From an uncultured Dehalococcoidaceae bacterium (GTDB lineage: Bacteria; Chloroflexota; Dehalococcoidia; Dehalococcoidales; RBG-16-60-22), in the NCBI GenBank assembly GCA_964468755.1, contig CAYXWH010000001.1, positions 15,148 through 79,147 on the forward strand: a DNA stretch of 64,000 bases. The letters are read 5' to 3'. Under the pieces are notes generated by a model. The model had not been told where the DNA came from. It saw nothing but the letters and a program-made list of their open reading frames with translations, and made no database searches. The position numbers and the translations under genes are program-made. Below, in pieces: positions 10,108-41,353 of this stretch. Each line of letters starts with the position of its first letter. Within the stretch, counting starts at the first letter, position 1.

Positions 10108-12081
10108 TTGAGCGGTTATCAGGAGCTTATTGGAAACCATACCTTGAAATGGCCCTATCCCGTCAATTACGGTAAGGAGACCGAGGTCAGTACCGATGTC
10201 CTCATCATCGGCGGTGGTGTTGCCGGTTGCCATGCCGCCATCAATGCCGCTAAACAGGGAGTAAAGGTTGCCGTGGTTGACAAGGCTTCAATCTACCGGA
10301 GCGGCTCGGGGGGAGCCGGCGTTGACCACTGGGGCGGTGCTTTGACCAATCCACGCTCCAGAACCACCCCTGAAGAATCGATAGAACTAGCGGAAGGGCC
10401 GTTTATTCCAAGCGACTATTCTCTGGGACATATCCGTTACATTACTTCCAAGGAAAGCTATGATGCCCTCCTTGACATGGAACAGATGGGGATGAAAATC
10501 CGGGACGTGGACGACGAGTTTGTCGGCGCTCCATTCCGGGATGAAGAGACCAGGCTCATGTTTGCCTACGATTACGATAACCCGACCTGTATCCGCGTCA
10601 TGGGATCTAATGTTAAGCCCTGCCTGTATAACGAGCTCAAGCGACTGGGTGTAGAGCTCCGGGAGCATATCATGGTGACCGGACTGCTCAACGAGGGGGG
10701 CAAACAGGGGGGTAGGATAGTCGGCGCCACCGGGGTGAATATCAGGACCGGCGAGTTCTACATCTTCAAGGCGAAAGCTACCATCCTCGCCACCGCCCAG
10801 CCGTTGCGCATCTGGATATTCAACACCGAGCTGGTGGGGTCATATGTTGAGCACGATGACCCGAACCTCGCCGGCGACGGCGATGCCATGGGCTGGCTGG
10901 CCGGCGCCGAGCTGACCATGATGGAGCGGAGCCAGGATTCATCCGGCCCGTTCCGCTATCCGCCTTACGGCACCGGAAACGCGAGCAACACCTGGTTTGC
11001 CTGCAGCATGGTGGACGCTGACGGCAAAGAAATCCCCTGGGTCGACGGTAATGGTAACGTACTGAAAACGGTTGAAGAACGATACCATAACGGCGGAGAA
11101 GGGGGACGCCGGGGCAATGGCGCCCGGCTTATCCCTGACCTGGCCGAGCGCATCACGAAGGGGGAATACAAGCTCCCCCTGTATGCTGATCTGCCCGGCA
11201 TGCCGGAGCATGAGCGAAGGGCAATCTTCGGCTTAATGGTGGGGAACGAGGGCAAGACCCGCATGGCAGTATATGACATGTACACCAGGTATGGATTTGA
11301 CCCGGACAAGGATATGCTCCAGGCTAACGTTTTACCACCGGCACTTGCCGGAAGAATGGGCCCCTGGTGGGATATGAAATCAGCCCTGGCCTCGGCGCCG
11401 CAGTGGCGGGCGACTGCCTTTATCGGCGGCGGCGGACTGCTGGTCGACTGGGATATGAAGACGACGCTCGAAGGTTTATATGCCGCCGGTGCCCAGACCG
11501 CTGGCGGCGGTGGTCATGCCGGGGCGGCTGCCACCGGCAGGTATGCCGGCAGGAAAGCGGCTGCCTACATAAAGGAAGCCGGAGACCCCGTTATCGACCG
11601 CACGCAGGTGGATGAGGAAAAAACCCGGGTCTATTCTCCCGTCGGCCGCAAGGGCGATATCGGCTGGAAAGAGTTGCATGGAGGGATTGCCCGCATCATG
11701 CAAGACTACTGCGGTGAGTACAAGAGCGAGGAAGTCCTCAAGAGGGGGCTGTGGTGGCTGAACAGTATCCGGGAGAGCGAGGCGGAGCGGGTCTATGTCC
11801 GCAACCCGCATGAGCTGGCGCGCTTCCTGGAGACAATGGTACGACTCACCGTAGGTGAGCTAATCATGAACGCATCACTGGCGCGGCAGGCAAGCAGCGA
11901 GCCGCTGGACTTCTGGCGTCTGGACTACCCCGAGGTTGACCCGCCGGAATGGCAGAGGTTTGTCACCATCAGGCTGGAAAACGGCGAGGCTAAGGTGGGT
12001 GAGCGGCCGTTTAAATTCTGGCTGCTGCCGCCCAACGCCCCCACATATGAAGAAAACTACCGGCAGCACTGCGGACTTTAA
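10108..12081 (+). CDS. AprA-like FAD flavoprotein (adenylylsulfate-reductase-alpha / fumarate-reductase superfamily), copy 1, with no adjacent ferredoxin gene
   Basis: 657 aa with a TTG start 7 nt after GAGGAGG. AprA-like blocks include the FAD fold DVLIIGGGVAGCHAA, FYIFKAKATILATA and the C-terminal LDYPEVDPPEWQRFV. It is a close paralog of 18245-20218. Confidence 0.7.
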   Translation: MSGYQELIGNHTLKWPYPVNYGKETEVSTDVLIIGGGVAGCHAAINAAKQGVKVAVVDKASIYRSGSGGAGVDHWGGALTNPRSRTTPEESIELAEGPFIPSDYSLGHIRYITSKESYDALLDMEQMGMKIRDVDDEFVGAPFRDEETRLMFAYDYDNPTCIRVMGSNVKPCLYNELKRLGVELREHIMVTGLLNEGGKQGGRIVGATGVNIRTGEFYIFKAKATILATAQPLRIWIFNTELVGSYVEHDDPNLAGDGDAMGWLAGAELTMMERSQDSSGPFRYPPYGTGNASNTWFACSMVDADGKEIPWVDGNGNVLKTVEERYHNGGEGGRRGNGARLIPDLAERITKGEYKLPLYADLPGMPEHERRAIFGLMVGNEGKTRMAVYDMYTRYGFDPDKDMLQANVLPPALAGRMGPWWDMKSALASAPQWRATAFIGGGGLLVDWDMKTTLEGLYAAGAQTAGGGGHAGAAATGRYAGRKAAAYIKEAGDPVIDRTQVDEEKTRVYSPVGRKGDIGWKELHGGIARIMQDYCGEYKSEEVLKRGLWWLNSIRESEAERVYVRNPHELARFLETMVRLTVGELIMNASLARQASSEPLDFWRLDYPEVDPPEWQRFVTIRLENGEAKVGERPFKFWLLPPNAPTYEENYRQHCGL

Positions 12082-12155: not shown

Positions 12156-14117
12156 ATGAGCAAATTACTGTGGGAACCTACCGAGGAAACAATAAAACAG
12201 GCTAACATGACCAGATTTATCAACTTTGTCAATGAAAAACAAGGCATGAAACTAAACTCGTATGATGACCTCTATCAGTGGTCAATCGAGAATATACCTG
12301 AGCTCTGGGGAGCCGTCTGGGAATTCACCGATGTCAAAGCTTCGCGCGGCTATGACCGGGTGGTCGACGACCTCAATAAGTTCCCCGGTGCCACGTGGTT
12401 TGAAGGCGCCCGGCTGAACTTCGCCGAGAACCTGCTCCGCTACCGCGATAACCACACGGCATTCATCTTCAGGGGCGAGGATAAGAAATATACCCGCATG
12501 ACCTACGCCGAACTCTACTATACAGTAGCTCGCCTCGCCAAATCATTGCGTGAAATGGGGGTGAAGCCCGGGGACCGGGTAGCCGCCTATATGCCCAACT
12601 TGATAGAGACCGCTGTTGCCATGCTGGCGGCTACCAGTATCGGGGCGGTCTGGGCATCCTGCGCCACTGACCTTGGCCCGGGAGCTGTAATCGACCGTCT
12701 CGGGCAAATCGAACCGAAGGTCCTTTTCACCGTTGACGGCTATTTCTACAAAGCCAAGACCTTCAGCTCACTGGCCAACGCCGCCGAAATCGCCAACGGG
12801 ATACCGTCTCTGGAAAAGGTCATCGTGGTCCGTTATACCGAAGCGGACTCGGATATCAGCCAGATTCCCAACTCCGTCTACTATGACGTCTTTACCTCCC
12901 AGGAAGAAAAACCCGAGATTGAATTTGAACAACTCCCATTTATGCACCCGTTACTCATCATGTTCTCTTCCGGAACCACCGGAAAGCCAAAGTGTCTCGT
13001 CCAGAGTGCCGGAGGTATCCTGCTTAACCACGCGAAAGAGCTCATGATTCAGTCCGACGTCAAACGCGAGGACAAAATCTTCTACATCACCACCTGTAGC
13101 TGGATGATGTGGAACTGGCTGATCAGTTCTCTGGGAATCGGGGCGACAGTCATCCTCTACGACGGCAACCCCATGTACCCGGACGCCGGTGCCATGTGGA
13201 AGCTCATCCAGGATGAAAAGATAACCATTTTCGGCACCAGTGCCAGCTTCATTAACTACTGCAAGAGCGAAGGACTACAACCGGGCAAGGACTATAACCT
13301 TTCATCGATGCGGGAGATGTGTCAGACCGGCTCGGTGCTTTCCAGCGATGGTTTTGAATACATCTATGAGGCGATCAAGAAAGACCTGCACTTCAATTCC
13401 ATCGCCGGTGGTACCGACATTAACGGTTGCTTCGCCATCGGAAGCCCCACTGTCCCCGTTTACGCCGGTGAGCTACAGAGGTGGGGATTGGGCTTCAAGA
13501 TGAAATGCTACAACGAGAACGGCAAACCGGTAGTCGACCAGCTGGGTGAACTCGTCTGTGAAGCGCCCGCTCCGCCCATGCCACTCTACTTCTGGAATGA
13601 CCCGAACAATGAACGGTACATGGATGCATACTTCAACGTATATCCGGGAATCTGGCGCCACGGCGATTATGTCATGGCCCACAGTGATACCAACGGGGTA
13701 ACCTTCTTCGGTCGCTCCGATGCCCTCCTCAAACCTTCGGGAGTACGTATCGGCACGGCGGAAATCTATAATCAGGTAGAACTGCTGGATGAAATCGCCG
13801 ATAGCCTGGCGATAGGTCAGGACTGGAAGGGCGACCAGCGGGTGATACTTTTTGTGAAACTCGCCGAGGGATACGAACTGACCGAGGAACTGGAGAAGAA
13901 GATTAAAACGACCCTCCGGGTGAAAGCCTCGCCCCGGCATGTTCCGGCACGAATTCTCACCGCTCCCGACATTCCTTACACCCTTAATGGCAAGAAGGTG
14001 GAGACTGCGGTTACCAATATCATTCAGGGCAAGCCCGTATTGAACCGGGATGCCTTGAGCAACCCCGAATCGCTGGACTTCTACGAAAATATTGTCCCCG
14101 AACTGGAGAGGGCCTAA
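12156..14117 (+). CDS. aacS: acetoacetate--CoA ligase (acetoacetyl-CoA synthetase)
   Basis: 653 aa. The N-terminus MSKLLWEPTEETIKQANMTRF, the AMP-binding motif MFSSGTTGKPKC and the overall length fit the AacS subfamily of acyl-CoA synthetases. Confidence 0.75.
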   Translation: MSKLLWEPTEETIKQANMTRFINFVNEKQGMKLNSYDDLYQWSIENIPELWGAVWEFTDVKASRGYDRVVDDLNKFPGATWFEGARLNFAENLLRYRDNHTAFIFRGEDKKYTRMTYAELYYTVARLAKSLREMGVKPGDRVAAYMPNLIETAVAMLAATSIGAVWASCATDLGPGAVIDRLGQIEPKVLFTVDGYFYKAKTFSSLANAAEIANGIPSLEKVIVVRYTEADSDISQIPNSVYYDVFTSQEEKPEIEFEQLPFMHPLLIMFSSGTTGKPKCLVQSAGGILLNHAKELMIQSDVKREDKIFYITTCSWMMWNWLISSLGIGATVILYDGNPMYPDAGAMWKLIQDEKITIFGTSASFINYCKSEGLQPGKDYNLSSMREMCQTGSVLSSDGFEYIYEAIKKDLHFNSIAGGTDINGCFAIGSPTVPVYAGELQRWGLGFKMKCYNENGKPVVDQLGELVCEAPAPPMPLYFWNDPNNERYMDAYFNVYPGIWRHGDYVMAHSDTNGVTFFGRSDALLKPSGVRIGTAEIYNQVELLDEIADSLAIGQDWKGDQRVILFVKLAEGYELTEELEKKIKTTLRVKASPRHVPARILTAPDIPYTLNGKKVETAVTNIIQGKPVLNRDALSNPESLDFYENIVPELERA

Positions 14118-14160: not shown

Positions 14161-15351
14161 TTAATAACCCAGCCTGGAGAGTCGGTCGGCTAATTTCTTA
14201 TCCCGGTCTGCCACCCGGTCTATCCGAACCACTGCCGACTTACCCGTTTCTTCCGGTATCCACTCAAATTTGCCCGGGTCAAGCTTATGGCCACTCAGCC
14301 CGGGATAATCAGGGGCATAGCGATAGGCCCGGAAAACCTGGTTGTTCAAGCCAAACACGGGGTGTTCATAGTAAAAGGGGCTGATGAACTCCCAGACGGT
14401 CTCCCCGTCGGGGGTTACCTCAAATATTCGGCCCTTATGTCCCTCACAAACCAGGGTATTCCCGTTGGGCAACCTCTGGCAGCCGGATACTATGGACGAC
14501 TGGAAATTGTGCCTGGTTTTATCCATGTATTCCCACTCGATTTGACCGGTTTTGGGATTCATTTCAACCACACGGGAATAGCTGATATGGGCTGTCCTCC
14601 GGTGGTGACCATTGTCGAAGACCAGGATGTTCCCGTTTTCCAGCAGCGTCGGGTCATGCGGATGAGCCAGCTCCCCGGCTCCCCAGCGCCACTTAATATC
14701 GCCGGTGGTACGGTCAATAATGACCATCCAATCAGTATGGCGGAACGTGGTTAAAATATCTCCATCAGGCATCACAAAACAGGCATTGCCGTGAGTCCAT
14801 TCGGCACGGCCACAGAGGGGGCAGATAATATCAACTTCCGGGTCAAGGTGTTCATAACTCAGCCACTCCCATACAACCTCACCATCCCGGGAAATCTCAC
14901 GGAAGGAATCCGCCCACATCACCCCGTTATGCTCAGTGCCCGGAACACCACCCTTAACCCCGGCGGTAATATCATCCGGCACCTGCACCCATCTCAGATA
15001 CATGGTATTGCCATTGTCCAGTCGGCAAAAGTCATGGTGGTGGTACGTGTCTTCATACTTCCAGATAATGTTGCTATCCCAATCCGCTTCGAGCAGTACA
15101 CCACCGGCCCCACCCATATCCGTCAGGGGGCCATCGAGAACCCTCCCTGCATAGAGCAGGTTACCATTGGGTAGCAGCTTCCCGTATTCTCCGGGGATGT
15201 AGGGTAATTTCCAGCGGTGGACAAAGCGGCCCTGCATGTCCACCAGCCACACCATTCCAGTACCCCACGGAGCGAAAAGCGTATACCCGTGAAATGATTT
15301 CGACGAGTCAAATCTGGTTACCAGCTCCGGTTTTCCTTCTTTAAACTGCAT
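14161..15351 (-). CDS. aryl-sulfotransferase (ASST)-like beta-propeller protein, cytoplasmic (no signal peptide)
   Basis: 396 aa. Repeated W-rich propeller blades (LLPNGNLLY, RLDNGNTMY, LENGNILVFDNG, RLPNGNTLV) are typical of the arylsulfotransferase family. Confidence 0.55.
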   Translation of the reverse strand: MQFKEGKPELVTRFDSSKSFHGYTLFAPWGTGMVWLVDMQGRFVHRWKLPYIPGEYGKLLPNGNLLYAGRVLDGPLTDMGGAGGVLLEADWDSNIIWKYEDTYHHHDFCRLDNGNTMYLRWVQVPDDITAGVKGGVPGTEHNGVMWADSFREISRDGEVVWEWLSYEHLDPEVDIICPLCGRAEWTHGNACFVMPDGDILTTFRHTDWMVIIDRTTGDIKWRWGAGELAHPHDPTLLENGNILVFDNGHHRRTAHISYSRVVEMNPKTGQIEWEYMDKTRHNFQSSIVSGCQRLPNGNTLVCEGHKGRIFEVTPDGETVWEFISPFYYEHPVFGLNNQVFRAYRYAPDYPGLSGHKLDPGKFEWIPEETGKSAVVRIDRVADRDKKLADRLSRLGY

Positions 15352-15408
15352 AATAACTCCCCCTTTTTCATTACAGTCTTGAGATAGCCCCGATATTTAT
15401 CCGTATCC

Positions 15409-16743
15409 TTACCGGTAAACACCATACTCTCTAGCCGCTTCGGTTATGGCATGGAGATTATCCGGACTTGCCTCATCAATTACCACGCCGGCATCCAGGA
15501 TAAAACCGCCACCTTTACCGGCAGTCTCTATGAGGTTCCGGCAATACTCCCTGGTCTTTTCCGGTGTACCGGAGACCAGCAGCGACGAAGGAATATTCCC
15601 CATGATACACGCGGTTTGCCCAAGCACTTCCCTGGCTCTGGCCATATCGGTCTGGTCGAAGTGCCACACTACCTTACCCCGGGGCAGGTCTTTGATAATG
15701 TCCAGTCGCGAATTGTAGCCACCCTCAGCAAATAAAGAGGGTATCAGTCCTTCATCAATCAAGCCCAGGATTACCTTCTTGAGGGTAGGCCAGTAAAATG
15801 TCCGGTACTGCCCGGCCGACATAAAGCCGTCAGCGCCTTTATGCAACGGTATAAATATTACCGGAACTCCCGAAGTGTCGGCTGCGGAGACGCCGCGCTT
15901 GATTTCCATGGCAACCAGACCCTCCATAGCTTCCAGAAGCTTGTCCGGCTGCCGGTACATATCCATTATTATCCCCTGAGTACCCCGCAGGGTATCACCG
16001 ATGGTGTCAAATGGCGCCTTGGCCATGCCGCCATTGAACAGCGGCAGTCCCGATGCCATCGCCGCTTCATCACATTTATTAATGATATCCATCCATTTAC
16101 GTGATTCGCTGCCCGCTTCCAGTAGCGCCTGGAACGCAGCCTGGACTTCCGGCCGCCCCAACGGCGCCAGGCTGGGCGCAGTAGCCGGCATTTCGATGAT
16201 ATCGGTAAAGGGCACTAACTTCGCCAAAGGCTCCAGGGTACCGAAGATGCGGGGCATATAGACCCTCAGCCAGAAATCGGACGGGTCTTGAATGAGGATA
16301 TCGTATTCATCGGCTTTCATGTATTCCGCCTCGACACACTGATATGACGTCATCGGCGAGGTGCCATGGCCGGGCCATCGGTATAATCTATAATCAATGA
16401 TTTCCAACGCTTTTCCGGGGCCAATCGCCCCGGGACTGAAAAATACATCCGGGTCAAAGTCACGGGCAAACTGCAACCAGGCATGGCTCAGTTTTTTATA
16501 GTCGTACATGACGGCTTCCGGCGTTAGTCCGGCGTAAAAAGCCGGGTAAAAGCCCATAGACAGGTGGACCGGGACCCGGTCCGGCTGGCGCAAATTGATG
16601 GCATCAACCAGCCTGGTCACCCGTTCCCGGTAGCGTTTCTCAGCCTCCGGACTGGTAAACACCAGTCCTTCCGGGGAAAGCCACTGCTTAAACCGCTCTT
16701 GCCACTTTTCTTCGGCAGATAGTCCCGCCCATTGCTTTTCCAT
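15409..16743 (-). CDS. uroporphyrinogen decarboxylase (URO-D) family protein (methyltransferase/decarboxylase-like)
   Basis: 444 aa. The N-terminal helical extension followed by a TIM-barrel-like body (DRVPVHLSMGFYPAFYAG...IPLHKGADGFMS...GGGFILDAG) resembles non-HemE URO-D family members. Confidence 0.55.
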   Translation of the reverse strand: MEKQWAGLSAEEKWQERFKQWLSPEGLVFTSPEAEKRYRERVTRLVDAINLRQPDRVPVHLSMGFYPAFYAGLTPEAVMYDYKKLSHAWLQFARDFDPDVFFSPGAIGPGKALEIIDYRLYRWPGHGTSPMTSYQCVEAEYMKADEYDILIQDPSDFWLRVYMPRIFGTLEPLAKLVPFTDIIEMPATAPSLAPLGRPEVQAAFQALLEAGSESRKWMDIINKCDEAAMASGLPLFNGGMAKAPFDTIGDTLRGTQGIIMDMYRQPDKLLEAMEGLVAMEIKRGVSAADTSGVPVIFIPLHKGADGFMSAGQYRTFYWPTLKKVILGLIDEGLIPSLFAEGGYNSRLDIIKDLPRGKVVWHFDQTDMARAREVLGQTACIMGNIPSSLLVSGTPEKTREYCRNLIETAGKGGGFILDAGVVIDEASPDNLHAITEAAREYGVYR

Positions 16744-16934
16744 AGCTACTTCACGCCTGCCCGTCCTTTTTAACAGCTCCGCTATGGCATCGCGCCCGGG
16801 CCACTCACCGGGTCTTCAGCCATATAACTATATATTATTACGTTATCACGATACCCAAAATACAACTCGCGCTACTGTCACCTAGAGCTAAAGGGATTGC
16901 CAAGCCCGACCATCCGAATTTTCTGTATAAATAA

Positions 16935-17705
16935 CTATATACGACTGGTCAACCCACCATCCACATAGAGTATTTGTCCGGTAATGAAATTAGATGCCGG
17001 CGAAGCCAGAAACAGGGTAGGTCCAACAATATCCTCAGGCATCGCCCAGCGGCCAATCGGGATGCTCTCCCTTAGCTGCCGGGCTCCCTCAGGACTTTCC
17101 AGAACGGAACGGGTAAATTCAGTCTCGACCACGGTGGGAGCAAGGGCATTGACCAGGATATTGTGTTTTGCCCAGGCACAGGCGAGCGCCTTGGTAATAA
17201 GATTGACCGCAGCCTTGCTGTCGCAGTAGCCAAGACCGCCATCCGGTGGCGCGTAGGAGCCTCTCACCGAAGAAATATTGATGATTCTACCGCCACCCTG
17301 CTTAATCATCATTCTGCCCACTGCCTGGCAACAGAGCAGGGTGCCGCGGGTATTAACATCAATAACCTTCTGCCATTCTTCAATCGGAAAATCGGTGGCG
17401 TCATAACCCCTGATATTTATTCCGGCGGCATTCACCAGAATATCAATGCGGCCAAAGGTATCTATGGCTTTTGTTACCATGCCCGTTACCGACTTCTCAT
17501 CGGTAACGTCTACCTTTACGGCAAGCGCCTTTCTTGCCAGCGCCCTCACCTTCTCGGCTGCCGTCTCAGCCACTTCCAGCCTGCTATCGGCAGTAACTAT
17601 GTCAGCGCCATGCCCGGCAAACCCCAGAGCTTGGGCACTGCCAATACCACCAGCGCCGACTATCATGGCGACCTTCCCGGCAAAGTCAAAAACATCACTC
17701 ATCAT
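16935..17705 (-). CDS. SDR family oxidoreductase (FabG-like), paralog of 21175-21939
   Basis: 256 aa with a glycine-rich GAGGIG motif, NAAG, and catalytic S...YCDSK. Confidence 0.85.
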   Translation of the reverse strand: MMSDVFDFAGKVAMIVGAGGIGSAQALGFAGHGADIVTADSRLEVAETAAEKVRALARKALAVKVDVTDEKSVTGMVTKAIDTFGRIDILVNAAGINIRGYDATDFPIEEWQKVIDVNTRGTLLCCQAVGRMMIKQGGGRIINISSVRGSYAPPDGGLGYCDSKAAVNLITKALACAWAKHNILVNALAPTVVETEFTRSVLESPEGARQLRESIPIGRWAMPEDIVGPTLFLASPASNFITGQILYVDGGLTSRI

Positions 17706-17853
17706 TTTTCCCCTGGATTCATACTATTTTACTATACGGCGTTGTTATCCCCTCCGAAACACACTATCACACCCAACCGCACTATTGTTCAGGTTAGCCA
17801 TCTTGAAGTTAACCCTGAATAACACACTATCTATACAGGCACTGTCCAACCCC

Positions 17854-18204
17854 TTAGCCCACCGGCGGTCTGGTGTTGGGTGGCGGGGGGTTCTTCATGC
17901 CGATGCGGAAGTACTCGCCGGTCGCCTTGCGCTTCCAGCCAACCCGCTGGTTCAACGGGTGCTCCATCCGTATCGCCCCCGGTACCGGACACGGCTCAAC
18001 ACAGCAACCACCAAACCAGCACTCATCAGGATAGAGCACTATAGGCGGTTTGCCCTTCTCCAGATTGGGCACCAGCACATCCGTCCGGCATACCTCCACG
18101 CAATTATTACACCCGGTACAGAGCTCCGGGTCGATGATTATTGCCTGGCATGGGGTCATCGGATTGGGGACCATGTAGGCCTCATTGTAGACTTCGCTCA
18201 CCAT
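17854..18204 (-). CDS. AprB-like 2x[4Fe-4S] ferredoxin subunit, copy 1
   Basis: 116 aa (MVSEVYNEAY...). It has CTGCNNCVEVC and CWFGGCCVEPCP cluster motifs, then a basic beta-hairpin tail WKRKATGEYFRIG as in APS reductase beta. AGGAGG precedes the ATG at 18204. The longer 157-aa ORF in the track is rejected. Confidence 0.65.
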   Translation of the reverse strand: MVSEVYNEAYMVPNPMTPCQAIIIDPELCTGCNNCVEVCRTDVLVPNLEKGKPPIVLYPDECWFGGCCVEPCPVPGAIRMEHPLNQRVGWKRKATGEYFRIGMKNPPPPNTRPPVG

Positions 18205-18244
18205 TAGACAAGACCTCCTTATTTTTAAAGTAACCCGGTAAGAG

Positions 18245-20218
18245 TTAGAGACCGCTATGCAATTTGTAATTCTCTTCATAAGTAGTCGCATAGGGCGGAC
18301 GCAGCCAGAAATCAAGGGGTCGCTCACCTACCCTTACCTTGCCGTTTTCCAGCTTGATGGTGACAAACTTCTGCCATTCCGGCGGGTCAACCTCGGGGTA
18401 GTCCAGACGCCAGAAGTCCAGCGGCTCGCTGCTTGCCTGCCGCGCCAGTGATGCGTTCATGATTAGCTCACCTACGGTGAGTCGTACCATTGTCTCCAGG
18501 AAGCGCGCCAGCTCATGCGGGTTGCGGACATAGACCCGCTCCGTCTCGCTCCCCCGGATACTGTTCAGCCACCACAGCCCCATCTTGAGGATTTCCTCGC
18601 TCTTGTACTTACCACAGTAGTCCTGCATGATGCGGGCAATCCCCCCGTGCAACTCCTTCCAGCCGATATCGCCCTTGCGGCCGACGGGAGCATAGACCCG
18701 GGTTTTTTCATTATCCACCTGCGTGCGGTCGATAACGGGGTCTCCGGCTTCCTTTGCGTAGGCAGCCGCCTTTCTGCCAGTATACCTGCCGGTGGCAGCC
18801 CCCCCGGCATGACCACCACCACCGGCGGTCTGGGCTCCGGCGGCATATAAACCTTCGAGCGTCGTCCTCATATCCCAGTCGACCAGCAGTCCGCCGCCGC
18901 CGATAAAGGCGGTCGCCCGCCACTGCGGCGCCGAGGCGAGACTACTTTTGTGGTCCCACCAGGGTATGAACTCTCCGGCTAATTGCGGGGGCAGGACATT
19001 TGCCTGGAGCATATCCTTGTCCGGGTCAAATCCCGCCCGGGTATATGTCTCATATATGCCAATGCGGGTCTTGCCCTCGTTGCCCACCATTAAACCGAAC
19101 AGTGCCCTCCGTTCATGCTCCGGCATACTGGGCAAATCAGCATACAGGGGGAGCTTGTATTCCCCCTTCGCGATGCGCTCGGCAAGGTCAGGTATAAGCC
19201 GGGCTCCGTCACCAAAGGGACCACCTTGCCCCAAACGGGTCCGTTCTTCAACCGTCTTCAGCACATTACCATTACCATCGACCCAGGGGACTTCTTTGCC
19301 GTCGGCGTCAACTATGTTGCAGGCGAACCAGGTGTTGTGCGCATTGCCGGTGCCGTAGGCCGGATAGCGGAACGGGCCGGCTGACTCCTGGCTCCGCTCC
19401 ATCATGGTCAGCTCGGCGCCGGCCAGCCACCCCATGGCGTCACCGTCGCCGGCGAGGTTCGGGTCATCATGCTCAACATTTGACCCCACCAGCTCGGTGT
19501 TGAATATCCAGATGCGCAGCGGCTGGGCGGTGGCGAGGATGGTAGCTTTCGCCTTGAAGATATAGAACTCGCCGGTCCTGATATTCACCCCGGTGGCGCC
19601 GACTATCCTGCCCCCCTGTTTACCCCCCTCGTTGAGCAGTCCGGTCACCATGATATGCTCCCGGAGTTCTACGCCCAGTCGTTTCAGCTCGTTATACATG
19701 ATGGGCTTGACATCGGCTCCCATGACACGGATAACCGAGCGGTCATTCACATAGTCATAGGCAAACATGAGCCTGGTCTCTTCATCCCGGAATGGGGCGC
19801 CAACAAATACATCATCGACATCTCTAATTTTCATCCCCATCTGTTCCAGGTCAAGGAGGGCATCATAACTTTCCTTGTGCACGATGTAGGTAAGATGCCC
19901 CATGGAATATCTACCGGTAAAAGGTCCCTCTCCACGCTGCTTCATCACGTCTTCCGGGGTTATCTTCGAGCACGGGTTGGTAACCGCTCCATGCCAGTGG
20001 TCAACGCCGGCTCCCCCCGAGCCGCTCCGGTAGATTGAAGCCTTGTCGACTACCGCAACCTTTACCCCTCTTTTCGCGGCATTGATAGCGGCATGGCACC
20101 CAGCAACACCACCACCGATGATGAGGACATCAGCGCTGACCTCGGTCTCCTTACCGTAATTGACTGGATAGGGCCATTTCAAGGTATGTCTTCCTACTGG
20201 TTCCTGATAGCTCGACAA
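18245..20218 (-). CDS. AprA-like FAD flavoprotein, copy 2 (paired with AprB-like 17854-18204)
   Basis: 657 aa when started at the TTG at 20218, which is homologous to the copy-1 start and preceded by AAGGAGG. Nucleotide identity to copy 1 is roughly 90-95% (estimated by eye). Confidence 0.7.
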   Translation of the reverse strand: MSSYQEPVGRHTLKWPYPVNYGKETEVSADVLIIGGGVAGCHAAINAAKRGVKVAVVDKASIYRSGSGGAGVDHWHGAVTNPCSKITPEDVMKQRGEGPFTGRYSMGHLTYIVHKESYDALLDLEQMGMKIRDVDDVFVGAPFRDEETRLMFAYDYVNDRSVIRVMGADVKPIMYNELKRLGVELREHIMVTGLLNEGGKQGGRIVGATGVNIRTGEFYIFKAKATILATAQPLRIWIFNTELVGSNVEHDDPNLAGDGDAMGWLAGAELTMMERSQESAGPFRYPAYGTGNAHNTWFACNIVDADGKEVPWVDGNGNVLKTVEERTRLGQGGPFGDGARLIPDLAERIAKGEYKLPLYADLPSMPEHERRALFGLMVGNEGKTRIGIYETYTRAGFDPDKDMLQANVLPPQLAGEFIPWWDHKSSLASAPQWRATAFIGGGGLLVDWDMRTTLEGLYAAGAQTAGGGGHAGGAATGRYTGRKAAAYAKEAGDPVIDRTQVDNEKTRVYAPVGRKGDIGWKELHGGIARIMQDYCGKYKSEEILKMGLWWLNSIRGSETERVYVRNPHELARFLETMVRLTVGELIMNASLARQASSEPLDFWRLDYPEVDPPEWQKFVTIKLENGKVRVGERPLDFWLRPPYATTYEENYKLHSGL

Positions 20219-20407
20219 TTCCTTCCTCCTTGAACACATTAAGATTAGTATCCTGAACGGCTATACACCGGCAGCCGTTGTCTACCAATTTTCTTAAATG
20301 TTTAATATATTTATGTGGAGGATTGTCTCATTACTTTAGCTAGAAATGATTTCTGTACGGATTATCTATAATACCACCGGCGAATGTCAACAGTCCAGTA
20401 GTGAACA

Positions 20408-20445: not shown

Positions 20446-20877
20446 ATGACCGTTGATGAACTGGACAAAATATTAATAAAACTCCTCTCGGAAAACGCAA
20501 GACAGAGCAGCTATCAACTCGCCAAACAAGTGAACGTAAGCCCCAGCACTATAAGGAGAAGGATAAGGGAGCTTATTAAAAACGGCATCATCCGCACCAC
20601 CCTCACCATTGATTATGCGTCACTTGGTCTCCCCCTGGCAGCCCATATTGCATTGAATGTAAACCACGAGCAACTGGAGTCCGTCTGGGAAGCACTGCGG
20701 AAACTTCCCAATATAAAGCACGTTTCAATTACTGCCGGCAGATTTGATGTAATGGGAATGGTCCGGGTTTCATCCACGGAAGAGCTCTTAAAATTTGTCC
20801 AAAAGCAGATTACCCAGATACCCGGCGTGGAGAAGTGTGAAACGTTCATTTGCTTGCGTATGGAAAGGGCAACCTGA
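20446..20877 (+). CDS. Lrp/AsnC family transcriptional regulator
   Basis: 143 aa with an N-terminal HTH (LDKILIKLLSENARQSSYQLAKQVNVSPSTIRRRIRELI) and a C-terminal AsnC-type ligand domain. Confidence 0.85.
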   Translation: MTVDELDKILIKLLSENARQSSYQLAKQVNVSPSTIRRRIRELIKNGIIRTTLTIDYASLGLPLAAHIALNVNHEQLESVWEALRKLPNIKHVSITAGRFDVMGMVRVSSTEELLKFVQKQITQIPGVEKCETFICLRMERAT

Positions 20878-21174: not shown

Positions 21175-21939
21175 ATGGCTGATTTATTTGATTTGACAGG
21201 AAAGGTTGCTGTCGTCACCGGTGGTGCGGGTGGCATCGGGTATGCTATCACGCTCGGGCTTGCTGATGCCGGTGCCGATGTGGTTGTCGCCAGTCGTAAG
21301 CTGGAGCACCTGAAGCCAGTGACCGAGGAGATTCGCAAAAAGGGCAGAAAATCACTGGCAGTCAGTGTCGACGTCGTTGATGAGAAGTCGACAAGCGATA
21401 TGGTAAAGAAGGTGATTGACGAGTTCAAGCGCATTGACATTCTGGTAACAGCCCACGGCCTCGCCATCCGGAACCCGGCTGATACTTTCTCGGTTGAAGA
21501 CTGGCAAAAAGTAATGGATATCAATGCACGCGGTGTTTTCATGACCAACCAGGCAGTGGGCCGGGAGATGATCAAGCAGAAAAGCGGCAAGATTATCAAC
21601 CTGTCTTCGGTGAGGGGCAGATATGGGCTCCCCAATGGCTATGTGGCTTATTGCCCCAGCAAAGGTGCTGTCGATATGCTAACGAGAACGCTTGCGTGTG
21701 AGTGGGCCAAATATAATGTTCTGGTAAATGCAGTCGCTCCAACTTTTGTAGAAACCGAGCTTACCCGGACTGCTCTTGCTAATCCCGAGTTTGCCGCTCA
21801 GGTTAAGGCTCGTATTCCGCTGGGCCGCTGGGCGTTGCCTGAGGATATTGTTGGCCCCACCCTGTTTTTCGCCTCGCCAGCATCGGATTTTGTTACCGGG
21901 CAAGTTCTCTACATTGATGGTGGTGTGACCACCTGGTAG
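21175..21939 (+). CDS. SDR family oxidoreductase (candidate phloroglucinol-reductase-type enzyme)
   Basis: 254 aa with TGGAGGIG, catalytic S...YCPSK and an AGGAGG RBS. It is the first gene of a 4-gene string. Confidence 0.8.
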   Translation: MADLFDLTGKVAVVTGGAGGIGYAITLGLADAGADVVVASRKLEHLKPVTEEIRKKGRKSLAVSVDVVDEKSTSDMVKKVIDEFKRIDILVTAHGLAIRNPADTFSVEDWQKVMDINARGVFMTNQAVGREMIKQKSGKIINLSSVRGRYGLPNGYVAYCPSKGAVDMLTRTLACEWAKYNVLVNAVAPTFVETELTRTALANPEFAAQVKARIPLGRWALPEDIVGPTLFFASPASDFVTGQVLYIDGGVTTW

Positions 21940-22000
21940 TAGCATAGTTAAAAAAGCAATAATTTTGCGGAACCTTTTACCACAAAAGGAGTAAGCGCAT

Positions 22001-22339
22001 ATGAAAAAGATAGCACTGGACCAGGTTAAGCCCTACGAGGCACCCGGACACTTTAAAATGGTTGCGCTCAGGTTAGCCGGAAAGGATGAGACCGGTTCCG
22101 AGAAATTCTGGATGGGCATGTCTCATTTCCTCCCCGGAGGCGGTGCCGAATGGGCTTATGAGGACTCACCCGCGGAGAAAGTGTACTTCGTCATTGACGG
22201 TGAAATCACGGTCAAGACCAAAGAGCAGGAAGTTACCGTCGGTCCCATGGAAGGGGTTTTTCTTCCGCCCAATGAGGGAAGAGAAATTCTTAATAAGACC
22301 AACAAGACGGTCAGTATGCTGGTAATAGTTAATTATTAG
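22001..22339 (+). CDS. small cupin domain protein
   Basis: 112 aa with single beta-barrel signatures (GHFKMVALRL...HFLPGGGAEWAYEDSPAEKVYFVIDGEITV). Confidence 0.6.
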   Translation: MKKIALDQVKPYEAPGHFKMVALRLAGKDETGSEKFWMGMSHFLPGGGAEWAYEDSPAEKVYFVIDGEITVKTKEQEVTVGPMEGVFLPPNEGREILNKTNKTVSMLVIVNY

Positions 22340-22659
22340 GATACTATCTTCGGTAGTCTGAGTGATTCGTTTGCCCATGGCTATGGGTAAAATCACTCGG
22401 ACTGCCGTAGGTGGGTTACAGGATGGTTACCCGGTCTTGTATGAGGGGCGGAGGAGCTGTTGTTTGGAGCCAACGGGATAGTGGACACCAAAATAGGCAG
22501 GGTTAGCATAGTGGGGTACCTGTTTCACCGGGGATGGGCCCGGTGCTTGTCAGATGCCAAGTAATCTGCTACCAGTGGAGAGAAAGGCATACAGTTTCCT
22601 TACACCTCATTGACACAGTAACTACTGAGACCAAAAAGGTATGGAAAGAGGGAGATAAC

Positions 22660-23610
22660 ATGCAAGCAAAGGACGTTACCAATATCTCGTTAATTGGTGC
22701 GGGCATGATAGCGCCTGGCGTTGCTCAGATATTCGCCACCGGCAACTACAATGTATGTATCTATGCCCGAAGACAGGAAGCACTGCCCACCGCTCTTGAC
22801 CGTATCAGGTCAAATCTCTCGACCATGGCCAAAAGTGGACTAGTCTCAGAAAATGACATTGAGCCAACGGTGAGCCGGATAAAAACGACCACCAATCTGG
22901 CTGAAGCGGCGACTGATGCTCATCTGGTTATCGAATGTATTGCCGAAAATCTGGAGGTAAAGCAGAATATCTTCCAACAGCTGGACCAACTTAGCCCGGC
23001 AGACGCCATTCTGGCAACCAACACCTCGGTAATCAGCATAACCCAGATTGCCGCCACGTCTAAAAACAGGCAGAGAATCCTGGGGACCCATTTCTGGAAC
23101 CCGCCTTACATGATTCCCCTGGTAGAAGTCGTCAAGGGAGATGAAACCTCTGACGAAGCCATGGAGATAACCTATCAGGTTATGAAGGCAGCGGGTAAAC
23201 ACCCGGTGAAGTGCCTGAAGGATGTCCCCGGATTTATCGCCAACCGAATGCAGCATGCCCTGTGGCGGGAAGCAATTTCCATCGTGGAAAACGGTATTTG
23301 TGACGCCGCCACTGTCGATGAAGCCCTCAAGAATAGCTTTGCTATCCGTCTCCCGGTCCTGGGACCAATTGAGACCGCGGATATGGTGGGGCTTGACCTG
23401 ACCCTATCCATCCACGATTACATTTTCAAGCACCTTGAATCCTCACGTGAAGCGTCCCCCCTTATCAAAGAGAAGGTGAAGAAGGGAGACCTGGGGTTCA
23501 AAACGGGTCAGGGTCTTCAGAAGTGGTCGCCTGAGGAGGCTCAGCAGTCACGCGACAGATTGCTGGAATACCTTATCGAATGGAGCAAGAGGACACAGGG
23601 TAAAGCCTAG
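22660..23610 (+). CDS. 3-hydroxyacyl-CoA dehydrogenase family protein (L-carnitine-dehydrogenase-like NAD-dependent 3-hydroxy acid dehydrogenase)
   Basis: The start is moved to ATG 22660, which follows GGGAGA. It has a Rossmann motif ISLIGAGMIAPGVA, the core NTSVISITQ...HFWNPPYMIPLVEVV, and GFIANRMQ. Confidence 0.8.
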   Translation: MQAKDVTNISLIGAGMIAPGVAQIFATGNYNVCIYARRQEALPTALDRIRSNLSTMAKSGLVSENDIEPTVSRIKTTTNLAEAATDAHLVIECIAENLEVKQNIFQQLDQLSPADAILATNTSVISITQIAATSKNRQRILGTHFWNPPYMIPLVEVVKGDETSDEAMEITYQVMKAAGKHPVKCLKDVPGFIANRMQHALWREAISIVENGICDAATVDEALKNSFAIRLPVLGPIETADMVGLDLTLSIHDYIFKHLESSREASPLIKEKVKKGDLGFKTGQGLQKWSPEEAQQSRDRLLEYLIEWSKRTQGKA

Positions 23611-23683
23611 CGCAGCTCTGGACAGCAATCCGGGCAACTCTTCGTTTAATTTAATAAAATCTAGGGTACTGGAGGAATAAATA

Positions 23684-24619
23684 ATGGATAAACTTATCAT
23701 CACGGCGGCATTAACGGGTAACATCACACTCCCCACCCAGACGCCCTATCTACCGCTGACACCCCAGCAAATTGCCGAGGAGGCGAAAAGGGCGGCTGAT
23801 GCCGGGGCGGCTTCGATACATGTTCATGGCAGAGACCCCAATACCGGAAGGCCGACCACCGACCCCGAAGTATACCGGGAAATCGCCACTCTGATCAAAG
23901 AAAAAACGGACGCCATTGTCTGCATCACCACCGGCGGCACCATGTACATGACCGCCGAGGAACGGGTGCGCGTTGTCCCCGCCCTCAAACCGGAGCTAGC
24001 CACGTTCAACATGGGTTCTATCAACTTCTCCATCCACCCCATTGCGGAACGGTACAAGGACGAGGATTACGTTTATCCCTGGGAGAAAGAATTCGCGGAG
24101 AGCACCAAGGAATTTATCTTCCGCAACACCTTCGCTGATATTGAGCACTTCTGCAAGACAATGCAGGAAAATGACACCAAGCCGGAGCACGAGTGCTATG
24201 ATGTCGGCCACCTCTACAATATGTACTACTTTGTCCGCAAGGGCTTAATCAAACCGCCTCTGTGGATGCAGTTTGTCACCGGCATTCTGGGAGGAATCGG
24301 CTCTAACCCGGAAACTGTCATGTTCCTGAAACAAACGGCTGACCGTTTGTTCGGCGTCGGCACCTATAACTGGTCGGTCATCGGCGCTGGCTACCCGGCA
24401 GAATTTAATGCATGTGCCCTATCAACAATGATGGGAGGACACGCTCGCGTCGGTCTGGAGGATAACATCTTCATTGAGAAAGGCGTCCTCGCCAAGAGCA
24501 ATGGCGAACTGGTCGAGAAGGCGGTGAGAATTGCCAGAGAACTCGGCCGTGAGATTGCCTCCCCTGACGAAGCCAGGCAAATCCTTGGCTTAAAAGGCAG
24601 GGACAAGGTCGGCTACTAG
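23684..24619 (+). CDS. beta-keto acid cleavage enzyme (BKACE / 3-keto-5-aminohexanoate cleavage enzyme family, DUF849)
   Basis: 311 aa. MDKLIITAALTGNITLPTQTPYLPLTPQQIAEEAKRAADAGAASIHVHGRDP is the canonical BKACE N-terminus. Confidence 0.8.
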   Translation: MDKLIITAALTGNITLPTQTPYLPLTPQQIAEEAKRAADAGAASIHVHGRDPNTGRPTTDPEVYREIATLIKEKTDAIVCITTGGTMYMTAEERVRVVPALKPELATFNMGSINFSIHPIAERYKDEDYVYPWEKEFAESTKEFIFRNTFADIEHFCKTMQENDTKPEHECYDVGHLYNMYYFVRKGLIKPPLWMQFVTGILGGIGSNPETVMFLKQTADRLFGVGTYNWSVIGAGYPAEFNACALSTMMGGHARVGLEDNIFIEKGVLAKSNGELVEKAVRIARELGREIASPDEARQILGLKGRDKVGY

Positions 24620-29838: not shown

Positions 29839-29841
29839 ACG

Positions 29842-30672
29842 ATGACTAACTGGGGTATGATAATCGATGTATCAAAGTGCACCGGCTGCTACAACTGTTT
29901 CACCGCTTGTAAAGACGAATACTGGGATAATGATTATCCCCCCTATTCCTCAGGTCAGCCAAAGCACGGGCAATTCTGGATGAATATCGATACCAGAGAA
30001 CGTGGCGCCCACCCCTTCGTAAAAGTCGCTCACATACCTCTGCCCTGCATGCACTGTGACGACGCCCCCTGCATTAAGGCAGCCAAGGATGGTGCCGTCT
30101 ACAAGAGACCTGACGGCGTAGTTATCATAGACCCGAAGAAGGCGGTGGGACAAAAGCAAATAGTTGATGCCTGTCCCTATAATGTAATTTACTGGAATGA
30201 GGAAAAACAGCTTCCCCAGAAGTGTACCTTCTGTGTCCACCGGCTTGAAGCCGGAGAGGTTCCGCGCTGTGTACAGGCATGTCCCAGCGGGGCCCTGATA
30301 TTCGGTGACATGGATGACCCTAAAAGTGAGATTTCCCAGGTTATGGCCTCCGGGAAGACCGAAGTCCTCAATCCGGAACTAAAGACCAAGCCAAGGGTAT
30401 ACTACATCGGGATACCCAGAATGTTTATCGCGGGCAGTGCCGTATTTGAAGACACAGACGAATGTGCCGAGGGAGTGACGGTCACCCTGACCGAACAGTC
30501 TTCCGGCAAATCAATGAAGACCGCTACCAACAACTATGGAGAATTTGAATTTGACGGTCTTGTGTCCGGAAAGTACGTGGTGCAACTGGGATACAACGGT
30601 TATGCGGGAAAGAAGATTGATATAGAACTGAAAACAGACAACTACCTGGGAGCAATTTCCCTGTCTCGATAA
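29842..30672 (+). CDS. bthL: pyrogallol hydroxytransferase small-subunit-like 4Fe-4S protein with C-terminal Ig-like domain
   Basis: 276 aa with CTGCYNCFTAC, CMHCDDAPC and CTFCVHRLEAGEVPRCVQACP. The C-terminal NNYGEFEFDGLVSGKYVV beta-sandwich matches that of BthL. Confidence 0.8.
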   Translation: MTNWGMIIDVSKCTGCYNCFTACKDEYWDNDYPPYSSGQPKHGQFWMNIDTRERGAHPFVKVAHIPLPCMHCDDAPCIKAAKDGAVYKRPDGVVIIDPKKAVGQKQIVDACPYNVIYWNEEKQLPQKCTFCVHRLEAGEVPRCVQACPSGALIFGDMDDPKSEISQVMASGKTEVLNPELKTKPRVYYIGIPRMFIAGSAVFEDTDECAEGVTVTLTEQSSGKSMKTATNNYGEFEFDGLVSGKYVVQLGYNGYAGKKIDIELKTDNYLGAISLSR

Positions 30673-33279: not shown

Positions 33280-33280
33280 G

Positions 33281-33910: not shown

Positions 33911-33916
33911 TGCTCC

Positions 33917-37033: not shown

Positions 37034-37384
37034 TTAGCCTACTGGCGGTCTGGTGTTGGGTGGCGGGGGGTTCTTCATGCCGATGCGGAAGTACTCGCCG
37101 GTCGCCTTGCGCTTCCAGCCAACCCGCTGGTTCAACGGGTGCTCCATCCGTATCGCCCCCGGTACCGGACACGGCTCAACACAGCAACCACCAAACCAGC
37201 ACTCATCAGGATAGAGCACTATAGGCGGTTTGCCCTTCTCCAGATTGGGCACCAGCACATCCGTCCGGCATACCTCCACGCAATTATTACACCCGGTACA
37301 GAGCTCCGGGTCGATGATTATTGCCTGGCATGGGGTCATCGGATTGGGGACCATGTAGGCCTCATTGTAGACTTCGCTCACCAT
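37034..37384 (-). CDS. AprB-like 2x[4Fe-4S] ferredoxin subunit, copy 2 (protein identical to 17854-18204)
   Basis: The 351-nt CDS differs from copy 1 only by two synonymous changes, in the third- and fourth-from-last sense codons. Confidence 0.65.
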   Translation of the reverse strand: MVSEVYNEAYMVPNPMTPCQAIIIDPELCTGCNNCVEVCRTDVLVPNLEKGKPPIVLYPDECWFGGCCVEPCPVPGAIRMEHPLNQRVGWKRKATGEYFRIGMKNPPPPNTRPPVG

Positions 37385-37497
37385 TAGACAAGACCTCCTT
37401 AGCTATGCGACTGGCAGCCTTCTGCAAAAATTTATCCATTAATAACGATTATCCAAATATCGCTCAATTTTCGGCAAATACTCTTAATCGTTCTTAT

Positions 37498-37719
37498 CTA
37501 TCCCCAGCTCACTAGCAGCGGCGAACTCTTTTCCGGGGTAACCGTTATCGCATTCGTCGGGCAGTCAAGCACGCAGAATTCGCACAACATGCAGTCTTCA
37601 GGATAGGTAATGACCGCTTTCTTGCTTTTCCTGTCCATCCGAAACACGTCCATGGGACATATTTTAACACATATCCCGCAGCCGTTGCATAGTTCCGGGT
37701 CAATCCTCTCTATCGCCAT
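37498..37719 (-). CDS. 2x[4Fe-4S] ferredoxin (short homolog of the AprB-like N-terminal domain)
   Basis: 73 aa with CNGCGICVKICP and CMLCEFCVLDCP. AGGAGG lies upstream. Confidence 0.8.
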   Translation of the reverse strand: MAIERIDPELCNGCGICVKICPMDVFRMDRKSKKAVITYPEDCMLCEFCVLDCPTNAITVTPEKSSPLLVSWG

Positions 37720-41328: not shown

Positions 41329-41353
41329 CCATTAATACTAGTGGTTAAACAAA

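Follow-up and report, generated by a model that had tools for sequence, protein, structure and literature searches.

Two reductases of activated sulfate are the closest described relatives of the gene pair reported here. Adenosine 5'-phosphosulfate (APS) reductase, AprAB, has been solved from A. fulgidus (1jnr) and D. gigas (3gyx) and combines a flavin adenine dinucleotide (FAD) flavoprotein of the Sdh/Frd superfamily with an adjacently encoded, small 2x[4Fe-4S] ferredoxin. Its genes stand in the canonical operon order aprBA. The second relative is the 3'-phosphoadenosine 5'-phosphosulfate (PAPS) reductase of Methanothermococcus thermolithotrophicus (8a8o), whose beta subunit is short and lacks the long AprB tail. 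In a 64-kb stretch of DNA from an uncultured Dehalococcoidaceae bacterium (referred to as the window herein), we found a minus-strand gene pair of the same architecture that encodes a flavoprotein, FlavA, and a ferredoxin-type small subunit, Fd1, in the order alpha then beta. Our analysis of this pair and its relatives suggests that the AprAB architecture has been put to use beyond sulfur metabolism, where FlavA-Fd1 is a candidate reductase of plant-derived phenolic compounds.

The kinship with AprA/AprB, which had been proposed in an initial annotation of this DNA, was evident however FlavA was compared. As a single sequence, FlavA gave its best PDB matches to the alpha subunit of the PAPS reductase (8a8o_A, 2.4e-33) and to AprA (1jnr_A, 2.9e-25), and the family profile matched 8a8o at 3e-47. 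The ranking was constant across single sequence, family profile and predicted fold: 8a8o, then A. fulgidus and D. gigas AprA, then SdhA/FrdA/NadB. For the fold we used an AlphaFold2 model built from a 24-sequence alignment, whose predicted local distance difference test score (pLDDT) of 65 confines it to fold ranking. FlavA has FAD-binding blocks and a C-terminal DYPE..EW..FV segment in common with AprA, as the initial annotation had pointed out; FYIFKAKATILAT aligns with FYVFKAKAVILAT of 1jnr, and RLDYPEVDPPEWQKFV aligns with RTDYPELNDEEWKCFV. However, identity to AprA is about 20%, and the alignment also places SSEPLDFWRL of FlavA opposite ETRWPGYYYR of AprA, as had been noted, so that ETRW has become SSEP. 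The PAPS reductase is the best PDB match for both subunits of the pair, but it too differs substantially: identity is about 22%, and FlavA has 657 residues versus 571, with large insertions around residues 280-430.

Curated models place FlavA well outside the described families. The AprA equivalog TIGR02061 scored 98.5 bits against a cut-off of 641.75 (about 15%), NF005331 scored 136.4 bits against 557, and the best NCBIfam model, NF006131 (PAPS reductase / AprAB-like type), scored 197.6 bits against 587.

In AprA of A. fulgidus, APS and sulfite are bound by Asn-A74, Trp-A234, Arg-A265 and His-A398. In an alignment of 246 FlavA relatives, the Asn74 loop (SAIN in AprA, NAIN in 8a8o) gives way to D73-H74-W75, an invariant triad followed by H, G or C, which reads DHW(H/G) in FlavA and its paralogue FlavB. 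This DHW loop stands where the AprA loop faces the flavin. The position opposite Trp234 falls in a variable stretch, the equivalent of Arg265 is Arg in 116 of the 246 sequences (47%), and the His398 segment (VGGH in 8a8o) reads GGGG, with the histidine absent. Besides the DHW loop, the family has invariant residues of its own at E242, E274, R434, D447-W448, R604 and D606. The substrate motifs of SdhA/FrdA/NadB, HPT and E-S-R-G-x-H-x-R-x-D-(Y/F)-P, are likewise absent from FlavA and FlavB, which read SSEPLDFWRLDYP. Because the AprA residues are replaced and a different set is invariant, the FlavA family, judged from its alignment, is a clade of its own that lies on the AprA side of the superfamily and whose substrate site has been rebuilt. 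The defining features of AprA, of the PAPS-reductase/AprAB-like assimilation clade and of Sdh/Frd/NadB were each tested and not found; hence, by sequence, the family is none of these. The 'AprAB-like' paralogues described by the authors of DiSCo sit among sulfur-assimilation genes (PMC8477390). That group is a different clade, and the neighbourhoods of the FlavA family are without sat, cysH-type, sulfatase or TauE genes.

The initial annotation had argued that APS is unlikely to be the substrate, and our analysis supports its exclusion. FlavA does not nest within bona fide AprA with intact binding residues: its scores lie far below the curated cut-offs, the residues are lost, and sat, qmo and dsr are all missing from the annotated open reading frames (ORFs) of the window. 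Also not found in the window annotations was aprM, so that the pair, unlike AprAB, stands without sat, qmo or aprM nearby. Among the 136 related loci described below, an ATP-sulfurylase seed matched none; qmo was not searched separately there.

Nothing in the family loci is better conserved than the two-subunit architecture. An adjacent 2x[4Fe-4S] ferredoxin subunit, as in AprAB, is encoded 40 nt downstream of FlavA, and in 105 of 136 related loci the gene immediately downstream of the flavoprotein encodes a ferredoxin homologue. Of these loci, 52 came from species-representative genomes, 4 from exact-protein look-ups and 80 from metagenomes, and their ORFs, found with a crude ORF caller, were labelled by phmmer with seeds taken from the window and from annotated loci. 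The family ferredoxins share invariant residues C29, C32, C35, C39, E61-C62-W63, C68, C72, W90 and R92, with the consensus cluster motifs CxxCxxCxxxC and ECWFCGxCVExCP. Fd1 itself deviates at residues 62-72 (17989-18021), where its second motif reads C-x4-C-C-x3-C versus the family consensus C-x2-C-x2-C-x3-C-P; the second cysteine is displaced by two positions. The best PDB match of Fd1 as a single sequence was the beta subunit of the PAPS reductase (8a8o_C, 6.4e-6), and the ferredoxin core weakly matched 8a8o_C, 3gyx_B and 1jnr_B at 2.5e-9 to 1e-5 (3gyx_B 3e-6; 1jnr_B 1e-5). Against the AprB equivalog TIGR02060, Fd1 scored 21 bits with a cut-off of 135.65, and its C-terminal 67 residues (50-116) had no relevant match to AprB or any solved chain. 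The AprB layout that had been claimed for Fd1 therefore stands for the generic architecture and the weak core match but not for the tail, which is unrelated to that of AprB at the sequence level.

The family is large, with more than 3,600 database clusters at E <= 1e-10, and its members are concentrated among uncultured Dehalococcoidia, Acidobacteriota and Desulfobacterota of peat, fen, aquifer and marine sediments. The 'enzyme latch' idea frames a debate on anaerobic polyphenol turnover in such places. The clade is uncharacterized and has a non-sulfur context, and we found no paper describing it in the literature searched. Some members (P0080) carry the database name 'adenylylsulfate reductase subunit alpha'; such a label would falsely inflate the sulfate-reducing or sulfur-oxidizing potential inferred from metagenomes.

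What surrounds the flavoprotein genes instead are genes for phenolic compounds. Across the 136 loci, URO-D homologues occurred in 31, Amidohydrolase_2 in 24, major facilitator superfamily (MFS) genes in 19, IclR in 18, SBP5-type ATP-binding cassette (ABC) genes in 16, short-chain dehydrogenases (SDR) in 14, AhtL-type (pyrogallol-transhydroxylase-type) Mo enzymes in 13 and aldehyde:ferredoxin oxidoreductases in 10. A second clade shares 46% identity with FlavA, and 14 of its 17 members stand beside URO-D. Many Acidobacteriota show IclR next to Flav-Fd-MFS-URO-D-Flav-Fd, locus L145 reads Flav-Fd-URO-D-ABC transporter-Flav, and transhydroxylase genes appear in L094 (AhtL-AhtS-amidohydrolase-AhtL-AhtS-SBP5-Flav) and in Moorella sulfitireducens (AhtL-AhtS-Fd-DctP-amidohydrolase_2-x-ASST-x-Flav). 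L062 and L063 both read Flav-Flav-AhtL-AhtL-AhtL-AhtS-Flav. In these two loci (L062 1761-12291, L063 262-12176), three tandem AhtL-type large-subunit paralogues are joined by one small-subunit gene and flanked by flavoprotein genes, an arrangement that recalls the sequential transhydroxylations described for Pelobacter massiliensis. An NCBIfam search of the amidohydrolase_2 and ASST neighbours returned no specific names. Sulfur genes were scarce: ASST was found in 4 of the 136 loci, and TauE, sulfatase, ATP sulfurylase and PAPS_reduct seeds in none, and a Pfam scan of 275 further neighbours revealed no sulfur family among the 25 commonest.

The most frequent partner after the ferredoxin, the URO-D protein, is also encoded in the window, two genes downstream of Fd1. 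Its best PDB match was CdmB (9rui, 4.5e-37), with both the N- and C-terminal parts covered. CdmB is the substrate:corrinoid methyltransferase of a chloromethane system, and its clade-mates MtvB, OdmB, VdmB and MtoB are the substrate:corrinoid methyltransferases (MT-I) of O-demethylases (PMC13222342). By its PF01208 domain and the CdmB match, the window protein is a member of this clade. Homologues 58-60% identical to it adjoin a corrinoid protein in Moorella and L144, and O-demethylase partner genes lie beside such homologues in L137, L143 and L144. L143 contains three URO-D-family genes, one of them the homologue of the window gene, together with a corrinoid protein, the activator RACo and a pterin-binding second methyltransferase (MT-II). 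Corrinoid proteins are also found inside flavoprotein loci L036, L079 and L059, the last being syntenic with the window, and in the acidobacteriotal L036 (2-10736) Flav-Fd-URO-D is accompanied by MT-II, a RACo activator and a corrinoid protein, a complete O-demethylase set. Since URO-D and corrinoid genes recur at flavoprotein loci and their homologues sit in O-demethylase clusters, the flavoprotein-ferredoxin pair is a frequent companion of aryl methyl ether O-demethylases. The sequence comparisons indicate that the window URO-D protein is most likely the MT-I of such a demethylase. We also considered a corrinoid-independent URO-D decarboxylase, prompted by a missing H-x-C zinc motif and the lack of a local corrinoid protein, and dropped it when orthologues were found in canonical O-demethylase clusters.

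The window itself places the pair among genes for phenolic catabolism, as the initial annotation had recognized. Phloroglucinol- and pyrogallol-type genes surround it, including a phloroglucinol-pathway-like cluster, a pyrogallol-hydroxytransferase-like Mo enzyme (Table 1) and molybdenum-cofactor genes. The SDR encoded directly after Fd1, SDR1, is 57% identical to SDR2 of that cluster, which resembles phloroglucinol reductase (PGR). The anaerobic phloroglucinol pathway of C. scatologenes consists of PGR, dihydrophloroglucinol cyclohydrolase (DPGC), TfD and TAL (PMC10470551). Of the corresponding families, SDR, 3-hydroxyacyl-CoA-dehydrogenase (3HCDH) family and BKACE are present at 21175-24619, and no 'cyclase'-family DPGC was found in the window.

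Taken together, we put the chance somewhat better than even that FlavA-Fd1 is a ferredoxin-linked flavoprotein reductase of a (methoxy)polyhydroxybenzene-type substrate, with ring reduction as the favoured chemistry. The sequences show homology, the pairing of the subunits, the lost APS site and the gene associations; electron flow with its direction, the class of substrate and the reaction we infer as follows. The pair would be a cytoplasmic two-subunit oxidoreductase in which an external donor, probably reduced ferredoxin, feeds low-potential electrons to Fd1, and Fd1 relays them to the FAD of FlavA, probably along a path like that of AprAB. The reduced flavin would then reduce an organic substrate, not a sulfur compound, that is, a plant-phenolic-derived (methoxy)polyhydroxybenzene or close derivative. 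Upstream of this step, the URO-D protein would strip O-methyl groups from the substrate and the ASST-like protein of the same gene cluster would deal with its O-sulfate groups; elsewhere, amidohydrolase_2 decarboxylases and AhtL-type transhydroxylases would fill similar unmasking or trimming roles. After it, the PGR-like SDR1 would reduce a carbonyl of the product, and the carbon would enter the pyrogallol/phloroglucinol route encoded next door. The chemistry could be a dearomatizing ring reduction in which flavin N5 donates a hydride to a di- or tri-hydroxybenzene in its enone tautomer, with Asp73-His74 serving as acid/base and Trp75 stacked on the ring. We favour ring reduction because the pair is what differing sets of funnelling genes have in common, and because the gene cluster here continues with a paralogue of a ring-ketone reductase.

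This reading has a possible precedent in the resorcinol reductase of Clostridium, which has been described as ferredoxin-dependent (PMC10470551). The proposed likeness is a two-electron ring reduction of a meta-hydroxylated benzene with a low-potential donor, and the position of the FlavA family beside decarboxylases, transhydroxylases and PGR-like SDRs can be likened to the role of resorcinol or phloroglucinol reductase. PGR, however, is an NADPH-dependent SDR with a fold unrelated to that of FlavA. To our knowledge, the genes for resorcinol and hydroxyhydroquinone reduction are still unassigned. A ferredoxin-driven flavoenzyme beside O-demethylases, decarboxylases and transhydroxylases is thus a candidate for a missing reductive step in anaerobic phenolic degradation.

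Several observations weigh against the ring-reductase reading. The closest characterized relatives, the APS and PAPS reductases, both cleave sulfate anhydrides. The purified Clostridium resorcinol reductase has subunits of about 50 kDa and contains FAD, a misfit to an enzyme of 72 + 13 kDa. There is no corrinoid protein or MT-II in the 64-kb window, so the assignment of its URO-D protein to an O-demethylase draws on orthologues elsewhere. The FlavA model falls below pLDDT 50 at residues 232-297, 418-468 and 593-657, around the putative active site, and our arguments about the pocket consequently come from the alignment. Outside the ferredoxin and URO-D, neighbourhoods are heterogeneous and many loci have no informative neighbour, so the family may act on several substrates. 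Finally, the literature we searched held no characterization of the FlavA family and no biochemical datum for any member.

An unlikely competitor keeps the architecture and the phenolic setting and moves the reaction to a bond outside the ring. The enzyme could then act on the C=C of a hydroxy- or methoxy-cinnamate, on an ether of benzyl or aryl type or on a hydroxybenzoquinone, or it could dehydroxylate reductively. In the cinnamate variant, a fumarate-reductase-type enoate reduction would act as electron sink during O-demethylation. Hydride transfer to an alpha,beta-unsaturated carboxylate is the commonest chemistry of the superfamily (Frd, UrdA, cinnamate reductases). The tight linkage of Flav-Fd to O-demethylase MT-I genes fits such a reaction, as does the presence in 10 loci of aldehyde:ferredoxin oxidoreductase, which could supply reduced ferredoxin; the several flavoprotein paralogues per genome suggest diversified substrates. 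E. lenta Ber, a homologue of fumarate reductase, offers a precedent: its substrates are the benzyl ethers of lignans, which it reduces, and a corrinoid O-demethylase and a Mo dehydroxylase act in the same pathway (bioRxiv 10.1101/357640). Like FlavA in the proposed role, Ber is an Frd-superfamily flavoprotein recruited for plant polyphenol reduction, and, together with other substrate-specialized Frd-superfamily reductases of gut Actinobacteria, it belongs to a paralogue-rich family. Compared by description, the two differ in that Ber is reportedly encoded by one gene, accompanied by a LuxR regulator, whereas the FlavA family lies on the AprA-side branch and has an obligate ferredoxin partner. 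Against a bond outside the ring, FlavC, a third flavoprotein of the window, keeps the canonical carboxylate-binding set (HPT, ESRG-H-R) that FlavA and FlavB have lost. Furthermore, the company of AhtL transhydroxylases and of ortho-hydroxybenzoate-type decarboxylases speaks for chemistry at the ring, and few CoA-ligase or beta-oxidation genes were seen among the flavoprotein neighbours.

It is less probable still that the pair is a redox helper that carries electrons to or from the Fe-S subunit of AhtL-type transhydroxylases (for instance in making or regenerating their tetrahydroxybenzene co-substrate), supplies low-potential electrons to corrinoid O-demethylases, or works oxidatively as a dehydrogenase. 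The pair does stand beside AhtLS genes in 13 loci and beside O-demethylase components in more than 30, and the small subunit of the Pelobacter transhydroxylase carries Fe-S clusters that are not known to have a role in a reaction that is redox-neutral overall. However, Mo enzymes and corrinoid proteins are both absent from most loci, complete O-demethylase sets come with RACo-type activators of their own (L036, L143), and the remodelled, strictly conserved DHW pocket loop argues for a small-molecule substrate.

The initial annotation had speculated that the pair could release sulfite reductively from an activated sulfate ester such as an aryl sulfate, and the ASST-like and TauE genes of the window deserve a closer look. 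The ASST-like protein scored 80.8 bits with PF05935 (gathering cut-off 24.2) and 59.7 bits with PF14269 (27), had no signal peptide apparent in its N-terminal sequence, and gave a single PDB match (9kf4, 6.7e-8, residues 155-320). TauE was confirmed at 41354-42442 (178 bits). A metagenomic operon, L146 (7001-12761), reads TRAP-ASST-ATP sulfurylase-sulfatase-PAPS_reduct-small membrane protein-TauE; its ASST-like orthologue is 59% identical to that of the window, its TauE 63%, and the small membrane ORF before TauE 51% (window unit 41077-42442, +). A further ASST-like orthologue lies beside a sulfatase (orthologues with sulfur genes are 59-60% identical), and another beside a corrinoid protein and URO-D. 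Because their orthologues occur in the ATP sulfurylase-sulfatase-PAPS_reduct operon, the window ASST-like and TauE genes very probably belong to sulfate-ester or sulfur-anion handling. These contexts also suggest that cytoplasmic ASST-like propellers take part in anaerobic use of sulfated aromatics.

Whether this chemistry extends to the flavoprotein is another matter. In an organosulfate reductase, reduced FAD would attack the sulfur of an aryl sulfate as AprA does that of APS, to give sulfite and phenol, with ASST shuttling sulfuryl groups and TauE exporting sulfite. The nearest characterized relatives do reductively cleave a sulfate anhydride, and the identities to the L146 operon members lend the idea some substance. 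Moreover, ASST shares the operon with FlavA, lies near the flavoprotein in L059 and stands directly beside it in Moorella sulfitireducens and in L095/L096 (in the latter ASST directly follows the flavoprotein), which amounts to three or four independent lineages and, by our rough estimate, to more than chance for a rare gene. Against it, the linkage to ASST and TauE is not conserved among orthologues (4 and 0 of 136 loci), nor are there sulfatase, ATP sulfurylase or PAPS_reduct genes at those loci or a sulfur family among the 25 commonest of the other neighbours. Of the AprA residues, Asn74, Trp234 and His398 have given way to others and Arg265 persists in 47% of members, the window TauE is 21 kb from the pair in a divergent unit adjoining FlavC, a flavoprotein of unrelated type, and the dominant partners (O-demethylases, decarboxylases and transhydroxylases) need no sulfur chemistry. 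Nothing ties sulfate-ester chemistry to the flavoprotein family as a whole, and reductive sulfite release by the pair is not supported; even for the ASST-linked members, FlavA among them, we regard cleavage of the aryl sulfate S-O bond as highly improbable. If it did occur, anaerobes could use sulfated phenolics as electron acceptor or sulfite source in addition to carbon source.

That FlavA-Fd1 is a divergent bona fide APS or PAPS reductase of sulfate assimilation or dissimilation, as its fold, its subunit pairing and names such as that of P0080 might imply, we reject as next to impossible on score (TIGR02061, NF005331 and TIGR02060), on loss of the catalytic residues and on context, with sat, qmo, aprM and dsr not found in the window.

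The pair heads five co-directional minus-strand genes, whose order and coordinates agree with the initial annotation and whose domains all score above Pfam thresholds (Table 1). A mechanical ORF list gives them as 18245-20239, 17854-18327, 16935-17705, 15409-16743 and 14161-15351, and for the first two the shorter models of the initial annotation are the better ones. FlavA starts at a TTG (20218) six bases past the Shine-Dalgarno sequence AAGGAGGA, which yields 657 residues, and the upstream ATG of the mechanical ORF is not favoured. Fd1 starts at an ATG (18204) preceded by AGGAGG. There is no convincing terminator within the unit, and a single transcription unit for the five genes is plausible. 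The divergent arrangement of the Lrp/AsnC-family regulator is repeated in L057, from the same organism. Rfam revealed two tRNAs only in the window, with no riboswitch or other element.

Table 1. Positions of the FlavA-Fd1 gene cluster and of the other features of the window
Feature	Coordinates	Strand	Basis or remark
FlavB, second 657-aa paralogue, no ferredoxin gene of its own	10108..12081	+	86% aa, 87% nt identity to FlavA
Acetoacetate-CoA ligase, co-directional with FlavB	12156..14117	+	NF002937, 893 bits vs cut-off 639
ASST-like beta-propeller, 396 aa	14161..15351	-	PF05935 + PF14269
URO-D-superfamily protein	15409..16743	-	PF01208, 74 bits
SDR1, short-chain dehydrogenase	16935..17705	-	adh_short; adh_short_C2, 207 bits
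Fd1, 116-aa 2x[4Fe-4S] ferredoxin-type small subunit, 36-aa C-terminal extension	17854..18204	-	Fer4 families
FlavA, 657-aa FAD flavoprotein, large subunit of AprAB-like pair	18245..20218	-	PF00890 + PF02910
Promoter-like site 5' of FlavA	20361..20390	-	TTGACA-18-GATAAT, 11/12 sigma-70-like, consensus match only
Lrp/AsnC-family regulator, divergent from FlavA	20446..20877	+	PF01037 + PF13412
Phloroglucinol-pathway-like cluster: SDR2, cupin, 3HCDH family, BKACE	21175..24619	+	
SDR2, PGR-like	21175-21939		
Pyrogallol-hydroxytransferase-like Mo enzyme, large + small subunits	27244..30672	+	PF21423 AhtL-like_1st, PF00384, Fer4_11
Fd2, second small-subunit gene copy, protein identical to Fd1	37034..37384	-	368-nt repeat
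FlavC-associated 73-aa 2x[4Fe-4S] ferredoxin	37498-37719	-	
FlavC, third flavoprotein, 535 aa	37796..39403	-	canonical Sdh/Tfr-like

Two further flavoproteins are encoded in the window. FlavB is followed after 75 nt by the acetoacetate-CoA ligase gene, and in the syntenic L059 the order is Flav-Fd-ligase. Differences between FlavA and FlavB are concentrated at residues 81-120, and H76G adjoins the invariant DHW loop; because of these positions, the comparison suggests that the two use different substrates. FlavC retains the HPT and ESRG-H-R-DYP motifs, has SdhA 7d6v as its best PDB match, scores 202 bits with the TfrA model and is divergent from an MFS-small ORF-TauE unit. Downstream of FlavC and its own ferredoxin lies Fd2. 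The two small-subunit genes are part of a 368-nt direct repeat (17854-18221 and 37034-37401, 99.5% nt identity), which points to recent duplication or gene conversion, and Fd2 may act as the partner of FlavB, which lacks an adjacent ferredoxin gene.

In the phloroglucinol-pathway-like cluster, a 112-aa cupin (22001-22339, +) takes the position of the C. scatologenes 'cyclase'-family DPGC and may be its non-homologous replacement; the SDR-cupin-3HCDH-BKACE order is repeated in L057 and L059. A second Mo enzyme (32323-36664, -) comprises a 915-aa protein with an Fe4S4 domain, a 4Fe-4S subunit and an NrfD membrane subunit. Its nearest NCBIfam model is the thiosulfate reductase PhsA (247 bits vs cut-off 694), and a sulfur-anion reductase and an enzyme of the catechol-dehydroxylase type are both conceivable identities for it.

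Among the related loci, a glycyl-radical enzyme and its activase adjoin the flavoprotein pair in L005 (13277-16650) and L008 (3-2944). The best NCBIfam model of the enzyme is sulfopropanediol dehydratase (461 bits vs cut-off 1000), and we set this link aside, as it was seen in these 2 loci only. Lastly, a PQQ/BamB-like beta-propeller gene (2361-3656, +) adjoins an oligopeptide-type ABC transporter in the window, and in L059 (3104-5696) a PQQ/BamB-like propeller gene adjoins the ASST-like gene.

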